Source of the DNA: a virus
Virus genome (UHGV): UHGV-0258155
Length of the DNA stretch: 11,436 nucleotides
Direction: 5' to 3' (one strand)
Part shown: one piece after another, positions 2,814 to 8,694 of the stretch
Layout: the number at the start of each line of letters is the position of its first letter
How positions within the stretch are numbered: the first letter of the stretch is position 1
Notes under the pieces: generated by a model
The model's input: only the letters and a program-made list of their open reading frames with translations
What the model was told of the DNA's origin: nothing
Databases searched by the model: none
Translations under genes and position numbers: made by a program

Positions 2814-2931
2814 GTGAGATCCTCATTTTTGGGTGTTAGAATCCCCGGACCATTGATAGCGCCCATTGGGTTAACTTTGGTTTTAATGTTGTTTCCGGTG
2901 TAACTTTGGTCGGTGAGGCCGGACATGGCGG

Positions 2932-2947
2932 GCCCACTTCGGTGGGC
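2932..2947 (-). other. GC-rich hairpin (GCCCAC-TTCG-GTGGGC) in the intergenic region between the RacC-position ORF stop and the recE start
   Basis: Perfect 6-bp inverted repeat with a 4-nt loop read directly; no U-tract follows on the minus-strand transcript, so this is not a classical intrinsic terminator. Confidence 0.3.
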
Positions 2948-2953
2948 TTTCGC

Positions 2954-4384: not shown

Positions 4385-4408
4385 GAGAAATGCTTTATCT
4401 ATCAGCTT

Positions 4409-4621
4409 CTACAACTCATCACGAATCTGTGAGAGTGTGCTGATCGCCTGGTAATGACCGCGACGCTGCTCTTCTGTTTTGAACGCACGCATATCGTCTT
4501 TTATCGATGCGATTGCCTTATTCAGAACTTCCACTTGCGCTTCTTTAATCGCCTGTTTGCGTGGCTTCTGACGCTTCTTAGGAAGGTCTCTTAAACACGC
4601 CGGAATGTATGTCTGAGTCAT
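4409..4621 (-). CDS. Hypothetical 70-aa basic protein, first gene of the leftward early operon; speculative N-like antiterminator candidate
   Basis: ORF-track ORF; ATG at 4621 preceded by AAGAGGA. The N-proximal stretch LPKKRQKPRKQAIKEAQ is Arg/Lys-rich. It is the first gene downstream of the PL-like promoter after a ~290-nt leader. The functional assignment is positional inference only. Confidence 0.5.
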   Translation of the reverse strand: MTQTYIPACLRDLPKKRQKPRKQAIKEAQVEVLNKAIASIKDDMRAFKTEEQRRGHYQAISTLSQIRDEL

Positions 4622-4845
4622 AAAAAATCCTCTTGTGATTCAGCCCAGCCCACTCAACTTCGAATGGACTGGAATAAATCTGTTTGCGCTTCGCACCTCT
4701 CATCCCGCCAGTGTTGCCCGTTCCCACGCCTTTATCGCTCTCGCGATGGGGTAGCCTCACACCGACCGGATCGCGCCCGGTGCTGCGCCGAATTTGTACG
4801 TTGGGGTCTAAACAGGATTACTGAGTGCTGTTCCGACTTTGCATG

Positions 4846-4878
4846 TTGTTAAAAAGCAGGCGACTTGCTGTCCGCCGC
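4846..4878 (-). promoter_or_regulatory. Leader RNA element: bulged hairpin followed by TGC-TTTTT and a sequence close to the rrn-type boxA (TGCTTTTTAACAA versus remembered consensus TGCTCTTTAACAA)
   Basis: Minus strand reads GGCG(G)AC-AGCAA-GTCGCC TGCTTTTTAACAACA. Could be an attenuator/terminator, a nut-like antitermination site, or both. Not folded computationally. Confidence 0.3.
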
Positions 4879-4922
4879 TGGCTAACTTCGCTCAGCTGTC
4901 GATGTTTCGTTTCGATGGAGTA

Positions 4923-4951
4923 ATTAAACATCATGTGGATTTGTAGGTCAA
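4923..4951 (-). promoter_or_regulatory. PL-like leftward promoter: TTGACC (4951-4946) - 17 bp - TTTAAT (4928-4923)
   Basis: Near-consensus -35 and TAnnnT -10 with 17-bp spacer read on the minus strand; overlapped by TGTGGATTT operator-like repeats. Confidence 0.45.
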
Positions 4952-5010
4952 CACCTTGTGGATTTATTTTGTTGATTTAATCGTTTACTGTTGATTTTTA
5001 TGTTGATTTA
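4934..5010. promoter_or_regulatory. OL-like operator cluster: five TGTKGATTT repeats (4934, 4957, 4970, 4989, 5001)
   Basis: TGTGGATTT x2 and TGTTGATTT(A) x3 read directly. The same motif family recurs between the cI-like and cro-like genes at 7815-7880. Confidence 0.45.
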
Positions 5011-5036
5011 TTTTTTGGTGGCATAAGTGATATGCT
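5003..5036 (+). promoter_or_regulatory. Candidate rightward promoter for the 65-aa gene (extended -10 TGaTATGCT at 5028-5036), overlapping operator repeats
   Basis: TG-n-TATGCT read directly; the -35 is poorly defined (TTGATT at 5003-5008 is 22 bp away); strong RBS AGGAG at 5053-5057. Confidence 0.3.
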
Positions 5037-5063
5037 GAAAAAAACATCAAAAAGGAGTGGGTA

Positions 5064-5261
5064 ATGGACTTGGATGAAGAAAGAGTGAACATGATGGTTC
5101 ACGCCATGGGGCGGGCGGTCATGGAGTTGTCACTGGCAGATTTACCTATGACCCAGCAAAACATCATCGACAAGCTGGAACGGTACCGGAAGGAAACGGG
5201 AAACGTGATAGGTAAGGGTGTGAACAGGGATGCAGCTGAGATAGTGCGGAAAGGACAATAA
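5064..5261 (+). CDS. Hypothetical 65-aa protein, convergent with the NTase cassette
   Basis: ORF-track ORF; ATG at 5064 with AGGAG 6 nt upstream; TAA stop at 5259-5261 abuts the hairpin at 5266-5281. Confidence 0.5.
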   Translation: MDLDEERVNMMVHAMGRAVMELSLADLPMTQQNIIDKLERYRKETGNVIGKGVNRDAAEIVRKGQ

Positions 5262-5281
5262 AAAAGCCCGCACGGGCGGGC
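5260..5281 (-). terminator. Intrinsic terminator (GCCCGC-ACGG-GCGGGC plus T6 on the minus strand); possibly bidirectional but weak for the plus strand
   Basis: Perfect 6-bp GC stem at 5266-5271/5276-5281 with the A6 run at 5260-5265, which is a U6 tract on the minus transcript. On the plus strand the hairpin is followed by AGGTAGTGTT (poor U-tract). Confidence 0.5.
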
Positions 5282-5365
5282 AGGTAGTGTTGCGATAGTT
5301 ATTGTTATCAGCTTCAGGCTGGATAGTTATCGGCAGAATGGAGGATGGCTTTATGGGTGGGCAAT

Positions 5366-5389
5366 AAAAAACCCGGCGCGGTGGCCGGG
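5366..5389 (-). terminator. Intrinsic terminator of the two-gene cassette (CCCGGC-CACCGC-GCCGGG plus T6 on the minus strand)
   Basis: Hairpin begins 7 nt after the TAA stop (5397-5399) of the 310-aa gene; 6-bp GC stem followed by a U6 tract. Confidence 0.6.
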
Positions 5390-5396
5390 TGAGATA

Positions 5397-6329
5397 TTAA
5401 AGAACCGATTTAACAAGATGGTTTTTACGGTACAGACCTATGCGATCATTGTGAATCTCAGTAGTCTCCACTAAAAGAGAAACAATCTGTCCGACCTTGT
5501 GTTTTTTTTGTATTAAATCTAGCATTTCAATCGGATAGGAAGCCTTTAAATGTTCACCACCAACATCAAGCTCCAGCTTCCCATATTTGGATAGAACGAC
5601 CAGTTCGCCTGTAACCGTTTCAGTAATGGGAGGGGATGAAATGGTTGATGTAAGTCTACTCACCAAGTACTTAATTTTATTGGAGTCAATAGTTGCCACC
5701 TTGGTGCCATTACTAAATGGACCGGTCCAACTTGCATCAAATGTTAAGTTGTGTTTATCGCATTCCTCTACGATTCTCTTAAGGCTTACAGTGGAATTGT
5801 ATCCAATTTCAGCGACGTGATTCATGAAGTTGTTGTCGTCATCGCTTAACAACAAATCGAATATGCCTTTTACAGCCTTGCTGGGTACTGTTTCTACTAA
5901 TTCTGCTATTCCTGTAGAGAAGGTGACGCCCAATTTTGTAGACCCAGGGGATAAATCAGCCAGCCTGAGGTTTAAGGAGCTTTTCACGTCGTAGGGAACT
6001 TTTTTTGAGTCCTTGCCTGAGGCAATTTTGTGTGTTGCTCTTTGTATTAGCGCTGCAAGATTTGTTGAAATAGCCCCAAGCAGCTCTAAAGGAATAGAGC
6101 CAAAGTCAACCTCAGAGCCTTTCAGCCGCAGCTCAAAAAAATCGATAAGTGGGTGCCGACTATCTTGCTTTAATTTTTCGGCCTTCAAATCGCTCAGATG
6201 AGAATCCATGGAGCGATAAAGAAGCATGTCAGCAAAGGACCTGGTTTTGTTTTGCTTCATTGCATCGACTTCTTTTTGAATGAAATCAATGCGTTTATCG
6301 CAATTTTTAAACATTGATTTATCATTCAT
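5397..6329 (-). CDS. Hypothetical 310-aa protein, second gene of the cassette; no motif recognised
   Basis: ORF-track ORF; ATG at 6329 overlaps the TGA of the upstream gene (ATGA, 6326-6329), with GAGGA upstream; AT-rich codon usage (K/N/I/S rich); followed by an intrinsic terminator. Confidence 0.7.
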   Translation of the reverse strand: MNDKSMFKNCDKRIDFIQKEVDAMKQNKTRSFADMLLYRSMDSHLSDLKAEKLKQDSRHPLIDFFELRLKGSEVDFGSIPLELLGAISTNLAALIQRATHKIASGKDSKKVPYDVKSSLNLRLADLSPGSTKLGVTFSTGIAELVETVPSKAVKGIFDLLLSDDDNNFMNHVAEIGYNSTVSLKRIVEECDKHNLTFDASWTGPFSNGTKVATIDSNKIKYLVSRLTSTISSPPITETVTGELVVLSKYGKLELDVGGEHLKASYPIEMLDLIQKKHKVGQIVSLLVETTEIHNDRIGLYRKNHLVKSVL

Positions 6330-6805
6330 AAAAAAATCCTCACTAACCCTTTCGGGTTTTCACTGCGATCAAAACCAAACCAACCGCGCCAGTAGCTACG
6401 CCAGTACTCATAATCATAGTTAGGGTCATCTAAATTCTTCATGAGTAGTAGGACATCAATTTTGTAGTTTTGTTTGATGTAGTTTCGGTCAAGCAAATTA
6501 TCGACGCGGCCCCGAAGCATGACAGGTATTGAGTTTATATTGCTATAGTCACATACCAACAAAATATCAATATCATCAGGCTCTGGTTTAGACGTGGTGT
6601 ATGAACCATCAACCCATATTTCTGTAAAACAGCCATATTGAGCAGATAATTCTCGAATAGATTCGAGTAGCTGTATAAAATTACAGTATAGCATGCCTCG
6701 CCTGGATGATGAAGGAAAGCAATCGACACAATACGATTTTAATCCAGCTTCATCCATGTCATGGAACCCTGGCTCAAACAGGGGTGGGTAATTAATTTTA
6801 TCCAT
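6326..6805 (-). CDS. 159-aa protein with a minimal nucleotidyltransferase (Pol-beta superfamily)-like motif, first gene of the cassette
   Basis: ORF-track ORF; ATG at 6805. Sequence IWVDGSYTTSKPEPDDIDILLV fits the hG[GS]-x9-13-DxD pattern, with a further candidate acidic residue in NYKIDVLLL. Motif match by eye only. Confidence 0.65.
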   Translation of the reverse strand: MDKINYPPLFEPGFHDMDEAGLKSYCVDCFPSSSRRGMLYCNFIQLLESIRELSAQYGCFTEIWVDGSYTTSKPEPDDIDILLVCDYSNINSIPVMLRGRVDNLLDRNYIKQNYKIDVLLLMKNLDDPNYDYEYWRSYWRGWFGFDRSENPKGLVRIFL

Positions 6806-6841
6806 AAAAAACCTTGCTATACATTTGTTTTTTTTATTAAA

Positions 6842-6869
6842 AATCTAACCACCGAAATGGTGACGGCAA
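6842..6869 (-). promoter_or_regulatory. Candidate promoter for the cassette: TTGCCG (6869-6864) - 16 bp - TAGATT (6847-6842)
   Basis: Read on the minus strand about 37 nt upstream of the ATG at 6805; the spacer contains a short inverted repeat CACC-N6-GGTG. Read-through from the cI promoter is an alternative. Confidence 0.3.
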
Positions 6870-6953
6870 GATGTTACATGGGGTTACAATCAGCCAATAC
6901 ACCGCATTAAATAATTTTTTCACCAGCTATGCGCCGACCAGAACACCTTGCCC

Positions 6954-7066
6954 ATCACCCAAACGTCTCATCAGGCCACCATAAGCACGATCGCAACAAC
7001 CGAGAGCAAAGTAACCACGCCTACTATCAGATATTCTCTTATCACCCAAACGTCTCTTCAGGCCAC
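6954..7066. repeat. Two 26-bp direct repeats (6954-6979 and 7041-7066, one mismatch) between the cI stop and the cassette
   Basis: atcacccaaacgtctcatcaggccac and atcacccaaacgtctcttcaggccac read directly, 87 bp apart; the second copy ends 5 nt from the cI stop codon. Confidence 0.75.
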
Positions 7067-7071
7067 TAAAA

Positions 7072-7782
7072 TTATCGGCGATATCGCAATACCGAGTACC
7101 AGAACACAAAACCGATTATCTCGACATCTGCCTCATCAGCCTCTTCATCGTCATAATCGCGATTGATGCTTCGTATTAATAGCTTCCCACCAGGCTTTCG
7201 ATAAAGCTGCTTTATGCGCTTTAAATCGCCCTGGTTAATAGCATAGAGTTCGCCGTCAATAATCCGCTTGTTGCCTGTATCGACTGCTACCGTTGCGCCG
7301 TCAGGAATAACGGGCTCCATGCTGTCACCAGAAGCGGGAAAGCAAAGCACTCCAGAACCATCACTATTTGCACCCACCCTTCTGAGCGTTGCCTTGGAGA
7401 ACCTCAGTTTAAAGCCGTTATGATCTTCGCTATGAACACGCCCATCACCACACGCAAACTCGATATCCTTCAGAAACGGTACTTCCACCTCATCGTCAGG
7501 TAGGGGGGTATTTTTGTCCCAAGCGTCGACAGTTCCCCACTCAGACTCTGGCGGGATGTTGCTCTCCAGATCCTTCTTTGGAGAACCCTCTCCATTTAAT
7601 AACCAGTCAAGAGAATAACCGAATTTTTCAGATATTTGTTGCGCCGCCTCACGACTTAACGCGTCTCTTTTTATCCAGTTGTTGACGGTCTGTGGGCTAG
7701 TCGACAAAGCCTCAGCCAAATCCCGCTGCTTCAAGCCTTCCCTTGCCAGTAAAAATTTAATTCTTTCAGAAATGCTGCTCAT
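7072..7782 (-). CDS. CI-type prophage repressor: N-terminal XRE-family HTH plus C-terminal S24 (LexA-like) self-cleaving peptidase domain
   Basis: ORF-track ORF 7072..7836. I place the start at the internal ATG 7782 (MSSISERIKFLLAREGLKQRDLAEAL...), which has GGAGCGGAGGG immediately upstream. GDSMEP (Ser nucleophile) and a downstream LKRIK Lys fit the S24 family. Confidence 0.85.
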   Translation of the reverse strand: MSSISERIKFLLAREGLKQRDLAEALSTSPQTVNNWIKRDALSREAAQQISEKFGYSLDWLLNGEGSPKKDLESNIPPESEWGTVDAWDKNTPLPDDEVEVPFLKDIEFACGDGRVHSEDHNGFKLRFSKATLRRVGANSDGSGVLCFPASGDSMEPVIPDGATVAVDTGNKRIIDGELYAINQGDLKRIKQLYRKPGGKLLIRSINRDYDDEEADEADVEIIGFVFWYSVLRYRR

Positions 7783-7899
7783 AAAACCCTCCGCTCCATG
7801 CATGGTAAACAACATGTGGATTTTTTCCATCACCATAATGTTGATTTAATCCACGCCATGAATTAACATGGTGTTGATTACACATGAGCGGAGCAAAAC
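7783..7899. promoter_or_regulatory. OR-like divergent promoter/operator region between the cI-like and cro-like genes; three TGTKGATT repeats (7815, 7839, 7872); candidate PR TTGATT (7841-7846) - 17 bp - TAACAT (7864-7869)
   Basis: Repeats read directly and shared with the OL-like cluster; the motif GGTGTTGA at 7870-7877 recurs as its reverse complement TCAACACC at 4947-4954. Confidence 0.45.
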
Positions 7900-8121
7900 A
7901 TGATCAACAAAAAATCCAACGCCAGCACCCCGCTTGAGAAAGCCATTAATGCAGTGGGCGGCTCTCAAAAGGTGCTTGCTGAAAAGGTCGGCGTAACGCC
8001 TCAGGCCATCAATATGCTTAAAAAGCGAGGTGGCAGCCTTCCAGTAACAAAAATGCGTAAATACGAAGAAGTAACCGGACTTCCTCGCGAAGTTCTATAT
8101 CCAGGTATCTTTGCCGCCTAA
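7900..8121 (+). CDS. Cro/YdaS-like small HTH regulator (73 aa)
   Basis: ORF-track ORF divergent from the repressor; GGAG 6 nt upstream of the ATG; AINAVGGSQKVLAEKVGVTPQAINMLKKRG is a typical Cro/YdaS-type helix-turn-helix. Confidence 0.7.
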   Translation: MINKKSNASTPLEKAINAVGGSQKVLAEKVGVTPQAINMLKKRGGSLPVTKMRKYEEVTGLPREVLYPGIFAA

Positions 8122-8129
8122 CCGGCGGC
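8113..8129 (+). other. GC hairpin GCCGCC-TAACC-GGCGGC overlapping the cro-like stop codon, followed by TCTAACCA
   Basis: Perfect 6-bp stem read directly; no U-tract. Position corresponds to nutR/tR1 in lambda. Confidence 0.3.
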
Positions 8130-8151
8130 TCTAACCACGAAAGGGAAAGCA

Positions 8152-8694
8152 ATGCATTCACTTGCGTATCAACACAATACCGGAATACACCCGGGAGCGA
8201 TGATAAACCGCGCTCAAGCTAAAGCGACGCCGGACCACGAAAAGATCCGCGATGCGGTCCGTGCCTGGTCATCGGCGCTGGATAATCAGGACGTGGTGTC
8301 AGCGCTGATCATCAACGAATACCGGGAGCAGGGCGGGACCGCCATCAGCTTTCCGGACGACATCAGCCGGGCGCGCCAGAAGCTGTTCCGCTTTCTGGAT
8401 AACCGCTTCGACTCTGAGCAGTACCGCGAGAACGTGCGCCAGCTGACACCGGCAATCATGGCGGTCCTGCCGGTTGAGTATCGCACTCGCCTGATCGGTG
8501 CCGATTGCAAAATGTCTCGCCTGGCTGAGGCCGAGAAAGAACTCGCAGAGGCTAAACAGGCCGTGCTGCTGGACGCTCCAGAGCATCAGAAGCTGAAAGA
8601 GGTAAGCGAGGGTATAGCGTCGCTCTTCCGCCTCATGCCGGAGCAGGTAGGACCGCTGATGACGATGGTTACATCGATGCTGGGGGTTATATGA
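8152..8694 (+). CDS. Hypothetical 180-aa protein in the CII/YdaT position (phage regulatory protein-like; weakly supported)
   Basis: ORF-track ORF; AAGGGAAAG RBS upstream of the ATG at 8152; second gene of the rightward operon after cro-like. Family assignment is positional and from vague recall. Confidence 0.5.
   Translation: MHSLAYQHNTGIHPGAMINRAQAKATPDHEKIRDAVRAWSSALDNQDVVSALIINEYREQGGTAISFPDDISRARQKLFRFLDNRFDSEQYRENVRQLTPAIMAVLPVEYRTRLIGADCKMSRLAEAEKELAEAKQAVLLDAPEHQKLKEVSEGIASLFRLMPEQVGPLMTMVTSMLGVI

Follow-up and report, generated by a model that had tools for sequence, protein, structure and literature searches.

Coliphage phi80 carries the described immunity system that is closest to the locus analysed here. 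We used two records of it: X13065, which is the original sequence deposit of the phi80 early region, and JX871397/NC_021190. The O-L/pL region and the CI repressor of phi80 were reportedly described by Ogawa and co-workers (J Mol Biol 1988). In a full-text literature search on the phi80 operators, outside which the 1988 and 2012 phi80 papers fell, no site-by-site binding report was found.

The two other systems used for comparison are those of phages lambda and 434. As in lambda, the left and right operator clusters of the present locus are about 2.9 kb apart and flank cI and an accessory cassette, which occupies the position of rexAB. Also as in lambda, OL1 and OL2 lie over the pL -10 and -35, the centres of adjacent sites are separated by 23-24 bp, and the repressor consists of HTH and S24 domains. 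Unlike the 17-bp lambda sites, those found here are 19 bp long, unrelated in sequence and strongly asymmetric. In place of a dyad, the third left site has two direct half-sites, accompanied by a further orphan copy; beside O-L lies a divergent small gene, which lambda does not have. The 434 operators are 14-bp dyads of the form ACAA-N6-TTGT, whereas here a core of AACA-N3-TGTK is joined to a longer outer part, GATT. The N-terminal domain of the 434 repressor, however, is detectably similar to the DNA-binding domain of CI (residues 3-64, E=1.5e-4); no other solved structures are.

Identity with phage phi80

The window (the whole stretch of 11,436 nucleotides that was analysed) contains at 4917-5008 what is, with a probability of roughly 0.93, the O-L region and pL promoter of a prophage carrying coliphage phi80 immunity. 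The features are listed in Table 1. Among phage records, the best megablast match of 4400-8200 is phage phi80. The segments 4860-5080 (221-bp alignment) and 7780-7930 are 100% identical to JX871397, and the O-L (92 bp) and O-R (81 bp) features of X13065 are both present as exact strings. An earlier note on this DNA had described an OL-like region at 4923-5010, with a leftward early promoter overlapped by repressor operators; this is almost exactly the deposited O-L and agrees with the annotation of phi80. The same annotation bears out its further description of the motif recurring at OR, and of a lambda-like OL/OR split with the cassette and the small gene in between. The immunity had also been treated as that of a new prophage, which does not stand: judged by its sequence, the O-L/pL switch is that of imm-phi80, already known since 1988 and rediscovered in that note.

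The DNA of O-L, O-R and cro is identical to phi80 base for base (100%), and the identity is 98.6% for the N-terminal and 82.7% for the C-terminal codons of cI, 86.5% for the pL leader and 85.6% for cII. This segment-by-segment identity marks the prophage as a mosaic that carries imm-phi80. Further shared traits are the positions of the operators and promoters and a 65-aa ORF next to O-L. The differences are the mosaic flanks, the N gene, the nutL boxB and the C-terminal domain of cI, whose DNA has diverged though the protein is conserved; moreover, gene 40A of phi80 is replaced here by a PDC-M63-like cassette from an mEpX1-like phage.

The CI protein matches phi80 CI at 233 of 236 residues (99%), its N-terminal half (residues 1-117) being identical, and has Pfam matches to Peptidase_S24, Phage_CI_repr and HTH_3. 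In the C-terminal domain (7072-7430) the low DNA identity is accompanied by changes at only three of the 236 residues, so that almost every change is synonymous. Across related loci, the identity of the CI C-terminal domain is 79-100%, independent of that of the N-terminal domain; in these sequences, this independence indicates recombination within cI.

Of 5426 complete E. coli genomes, 64 contain the identical 164-bp O-L sequence, among them those of DH5alpha and DH10B, both carriers of a phi80 derivative. For annotation, the prophage can be placed as probably homoimmune with phi80 and its operator and promoter coordinates are fixed; on the biology of O-L itself, this adds nothing new.

Table 1. 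Features of the O-L/O-R locus, in the coordinates of the window
Feature	Position	Strand	Source and remarks
First leftward gene, 70-aa protein	4409-4621		phrog_5305
nutL boxA TGCTTTTTA	4850..4858	-	In pL leader; annotated in JX871397, identical here
O-L region	4917..5008	.	X13065 misc_feature 1139-1230, exact string; spans all five half-site copies
pL -10 TTTAAT	4923..4928	-	JX871397 minus_10_signal pL, placed by exact sequence
OL1 pseudo-dyad, 19 bp, ATTAAACA-TCA-TGTGGATT	4923..4941	+	JX871397 protein_bind, CI operator
pL -35 TTGACC	4946..4951	-	JX871397 minus_35_signal pL; 17-nt spacer to -10
OL2 pseudo-dyad, 19 bp, GGTCAACA-CCT-TGTGGATT	4946..4964	+	JX871397 protein_bind, CI operator
Motif copy 3, TGTTGATTT	4970..4978	+	Orphan half-site, no AACA partner; in no operator annotated in phi80
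'OL3' of the phi80 record, TGTTGATT-TTTA-TGTTGATT	4989..5008	+	JX871397 protein_bind, CI operator, 20 bp
Extended -10 TGATATGCT	5028..5036	+	Inferred rightward promoter of small gene; annotated in no record retrieved
65-aa gene (phrog_3975)	5064..5261	+	PHROG E=3.6e-35; divergent from pL; unannotated in phi80 records
Intrinsic terminator-like hairpin and T-run	5266..5281	-	Would end leftward cI-cassette transcript
Two-gene cassette, 310 aa and 159 aa (DUF6932)	5397..6805	-	Between O-L and cI; replaces phi80 gene 40A
cI repressor, 236 aa	7072..7782	-	HTH N-terminal domain and S24 peptidase domain
O-R region	7799..7879	.	X13065 O-R feature and JX871397 features, exact sequence
O-R operators, three, 19 bp	7804-7822, 7828-7846, 7861-7879		JX871397 CI operators; overlap pRM and pR
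pRM	-10 at 7802-7807, -35 at 7825-7830	-	JX871397
pR	-35 TTGATT 7841-7846, -10 TAACAT 7864-7869		JX871397
cro-like gene (phi80 gene 30)	7900..8121	+	100% DNA identity to phi80; HTH_3

The pL promoter and the left operators

The proposed sigma70 promoter TTGACC-N17-TTTAAT reads on the minus strand as claimed (4951-4946 and 4928-4923), with 10 of 12 consensus positions and a spacer within the 17±1 nt range, and is the annotated pL of JX871397. The single mismatch of its -10 is a T at position 2, usually a conserved A. A strict sigma-70 scan of 4600-5400 returned no matches, as neither pL nor the promoter of the small gene satisfies its rules: pL is missed because of this T, and the small-gene promoter because it has no -35.

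OL1 covers the pL -10 and the spacer, and OL2 the -35; their right halves are motif copies 1 and 2, and their centres are 23 bp apart. Dyad sites that overlap the -10 and -35 of an early promoter, as in the tripartite operators of lambdoid phages, are thus found in OL1 and OL2. The 9-mer TGTKGATTT had been taken as an operator in its own right. It does belong to the operator sequence, but as the better-conserved half of a 19-bp pseudo-dyad, nnTnAACA-N3-TGTKGATT, in which the other half keeps only T..AACA. With at most one mismatch, the dyad pattern AACANNNTGTKGATT has just five matches, where 0.16 would be expected: OL1, OL2 and the three O-R sites.

Copies 3-5 are orphan half-sites in the same orientation, with no AACA partner. 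The 'OL3' of the phi80 record corresponds to copies 4 and 5, which form a direct repeat with a 12-bp offset and do not match the dyad; a third left dyad is therefore absent from O-L, whereas O-R has three. All five copies described earlier are present, but the phi80 record annotates three operators in O-L and copy 3 falls in none of them. If each were the right half of a canonical 19-bp site, the site of copy 2 would share 6-7 bp with that of copy 3, and likewise that of copy 4 with that of copy 5, so that ordinary dimers could not, we infer, fill all five at once.

Copies and enrichment of the motif

The five copies of TGTKGATTT which overlap or flank the leftward promoter are all exact and on the plus strand (starts 4934, 4957, 4970, 4989 and 5001; span 4934-5009), with start-to-start spacings of 23, 13, 19 and 12 bp. 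Concerning the right-hand side, three copies had been reported between the repressor and the cro-like gene; two of these are exact (7815 and 7839), but the third, TGTTGATTA at 7872, has one mismatch. The start of cI is at 7782 and not at 7836, as given in the list of longest ORFs, and therefore all three right-hand copies are intergenic. The sole paper found that contains both 9-mers together with phi80 gives the O-R sequence as a predicted target of RacR.

The whole window contains seven exact copies, compared with 0.32 expected, and none of 200 dinucleotide-preserving shuffles of the window reaches seven. The local background (4919-5063, 30% GC) was shuffled in the same manner: none of 5000 sequences contains three or more copies, nor does any 9-mer with one free position occur in at least five non-overlapping copies in them, the maximum being three. 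The enrichment over AT-rich DNA, on which the earlier note had made its reading depend, thus holds against both backgrounds, and chance repetition is excluded by both sets of shuffles.

Sites for host factors or replication proteins (DnaA boxes, IHF sites, iterons) would be another source of repeats, and this explanation, like chance, has almost no probability left. TGTGGATTT matches the complement of the DnaA box, TGTGGATAA, at seven of nine bases, but the TGTTGATTT copies match just six of nine, and the DnaA consensus TTWTNCACA is therefore reached at 6-7 of 9 positions only. The reverse complement of the motif contains AATCAA, the start of the IHF consensus (WATCAANNNNTTR); WATCAA is thus present, but the TTR element is missing at the required spacing in copies 3-5. 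The replication iterons of the phage are annotated elsewhere, inside gene 15. These explanations were rejected based on the poor site matches, the location of the iterons and the co-variation of the motif with the type of repressor, which is described below.

Conservation and co-variation with the repressor

We scanned viral contigs with a left anchor (the pL leader) and a right anchor (TGnTATGCT), both of which lie outside the operators. The scan yielded 96 loci; 56 of their O-L sequences are distinct, and these fall into about 17 operator types. The phi80-type O-L is found in 24 loci (the window included) as 14 distinct sequences, with no indels across 4919-5009. In these 14 sequences, 54 of 61 motif columns are invariant, compared with 9 of 30 columns in the spacers (Fisher p=3e-8); when only copies 3-5 are counted, the proportions are 23/27 and 4/17 (p=8e-5). 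OL1 is invariant. In OL2 the central 3 bp vary freely while both halves are fixed, as expected for an uncontacted centre, and the sole change in the pL -35 among the variants is TTGACT. Copies 3, 4 and 5 are conserved in 13, 12 and 13 of the 14 sequences, respectively. Among the sequences compared, these counts show all five half-sites, including the three with no dyad partner, to be under selection; copies 3-5 are conserved and therefore functional.

The type of O-L also follows the type of repressor. In the loci whose right flank is 3.5 kb or longer, to which this count was limited, a CI N-terminal domain at least 80% identical to that of the present CI is linked to all 15 loci with the phi80-type O-L and to none of the 49 with other O-L types. 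In the other immunity groups, the words which are repeated in O-L recur 1.1-2.8 kb rightward at the start of a leftward gene, that is, in an O-R of their own. The comparison across relatives that had been proposed earlier thus finds the motif columns conserved and co-varying with the repressor, and the motif as determinant of immunity specificity is well backed by both results.

The conservation bears on a further explanation of copies 3-5, in which they are kept not as protein-binding sites but as TTGATT hexamers that act as -35 elements for rightward transcription. The annotated -35 of pR is a TTGATT inside the middle O-R operator, and the TTGATT at 4972-4977 lies 18 nt before TTTTAT (4996-5001). 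However, none of the copies is followed at 16-18 nt by an acceptable -10, the whole 9-mer is conserved, including the TGT outside the hexamer, and the same 9-mer forms the operator half at five dyad sites. We consider this explanation very improbable.

The layout of O-L differs among the groups. In the GGTTA-type (L007, L055) and the GTTGT-type (L058, L108), two dyads 24 bp apart lie over pL, as in phi80, and are followed by three to four half-sites in the same orientation, with 9-19 bp spacing, which run towards the small gene. Other immunity groups have three clean dyads in O-L.

The transcript inferred for pL is almost invariant in its first ~45 nt (CCATCGAAACGAAACATCGACAGCTGAGCGAAGTTAGCCAGCGG; 4876-4918, minus strand) across loci with unrelated operators. 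This near-invariant start is also found in HK639, which uses a putL-like antiterminator RNA. A search of the whole window against Rfam gave no match in or near O-L or the conserved pL leader.

The divergent small gene

The 65-aa ORF lies immediately to the right of O-L and has a strong Shine-Dalgarno sequence. It is found in the same place in phi80, HK225, HK639, ENT1, SW-37 and 10 enterobacterial genomes, and in E. coli NCTC 13148 PGAP calls it as a hypothetical protein. Immunity is of a different type at the genome locus that matches the protein best (Enterobacter sichuanensis, L007). Of 14 loci retrieved solely through protein similarity, whose operator types differ with immunity, 12 keep the sequence TGnTA(T/C)G(C/A)T upstream of the gene, together with the A/T block just before it. 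A 9-nt inverted repeat (5012-5020 / 5045-5053), which pairs a T-run with an A-run on the two sides of the -10, was judged trivial.

In phi80-like phages with roughly 17 types of operator, the gene and its putative promoter are neighbours of O-L, and both are left unannotated in the phi80 records. Selection on all five half-sites and this conserved divergent promoter and gene are the comparative additions of our analysis; both can be tested in DH5alpha and DH10B, which carry the identical sequence.

With a transcription start assumed near 5043, copy 4 is located at about -54 to -46 and copy 5 at about -42 to -34. Copies 3-5 (4970-5009) could then be mainly a CI/Cro-responsive control region for the rightward extended -10 promoter of the 65-aa gene, and not simply a degenerate OL3 or third pL operator; from copies 4 and 5, bound CI or Cro would either repress this promoter or activate it, as lambda CI does at pRM. 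This is a tentative idea which we regard as rather doubtful, and it is compatible with the explanation given for OL1 and OL2. The selection on copies 3-5 is consistent with it, as is the conservation, across many immunity types, of the extended -10 and the gene beside O-L. The conserved A/T block that immediately precedes the -10 is overlapped by copy 5 in phi80-type loci, and the half-sites of the GGTTA- and GTTGT-type groups run towards the small gene in the same layout. However, the overlap of operator and promoter is not universal, since in several other immunity groups about 32-37 bp lie between the end of the last operator and the extended -10 downstream of it; moreover, the strict promoter scan finds no -35/-10 pair, and the start near 5043 is itself a deduced position. 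If the idea were correct, these immunity regions would have a third promoter under repressor control as well as a conserved small effector, both missing from the classic phi80 map. The reading of copies 3-5 as weak auxiliary CI/Cro sites is preferred as the most likely one.

Concerning the 65-aa protein itself, no Pfam, NCBIfam, PADLOC or PDB sequence match and no sequence-profile match was found, and each of its 510 homologues bears the name hypothetical. A structure of three helices is predicted for it (pLDDT 79, moderate confidence). The best match of the predicted fold is E. coli YmgB/AriR (PDB 2oxl), with TM 0.75/0.78, rmsd 1.5 A and 28% identity over 54 columns, at a Foldseek E-value of 0.086, which is non-significant and has no sequence-profile or Pfam match beside it. 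This resemblance to AriR/YmgB is taken as a lead only.

Proposed mechanism

By analogy with lambda and 434, CI dimers with a 434-like HTH N-terminal domain and a self-cleaving S24 C-terminal domain would occupy OL1 and OL2 in the lysogen. This would cover the -10, spacer and -35 of pL and switch off the leftward early operon, and the 23-bp distance between the two centres would permit pairwise cooperativity. The same CI, bound to the three O-R dyads 2.9 kb rightward, would repress pR and control pRM. Copies 3-5 would serve as low-affinity auxiliary sites for CI or Cro, filled cooperatively, which extend the array upstream of pL and reach the -35 region of the conserved divergent promoter. The CI of phi80 reportedly undergoes RecA-stimulated self-cleavage; such cleavage, or the replacement of CI by Cro, may relieve or reshape the repression.

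The cassette and the mosaic flanks

Located where lambda has rexAB, the two-gene cassette matches PDC-M63, a candidate defence system in PADLOC (B, E=7.5e-45; A, E=1.8e-41). Its identity to phage mEpX1, in which it likewise follows cI, is 99.6%. A mosaic joint is located at 6955-6979, where the homology to mEpX1 ends at 6979 and that to phi80 begins at 6955. The joint consists of the last 25 nt of the cI gene of mEpX1 itself, and therefore a short remnant of the 3' end of another cI lies downstream of the stop codon of the phi80-type cI. The cI of VT1-Sakai also matches 6922-6979.

On the left flank, the nutL boxA is the same as in phi80, but the boxB region (4780-4810) differs, the CACGTAAACGTG of phi80 being replaced. 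The first leftward gene encodes a protein of the family found in HK225 rather than the N of phi80. The differences in boxB and in the first gene suggest that the specificity of antitermination would not be that of phi80. Further into the leftward early region, 2855-2952 (plus strand) has a marginal Rfam match to the Hfq-binding sRNA isrB, with 38.2 bits compared with a gathering score of 35.
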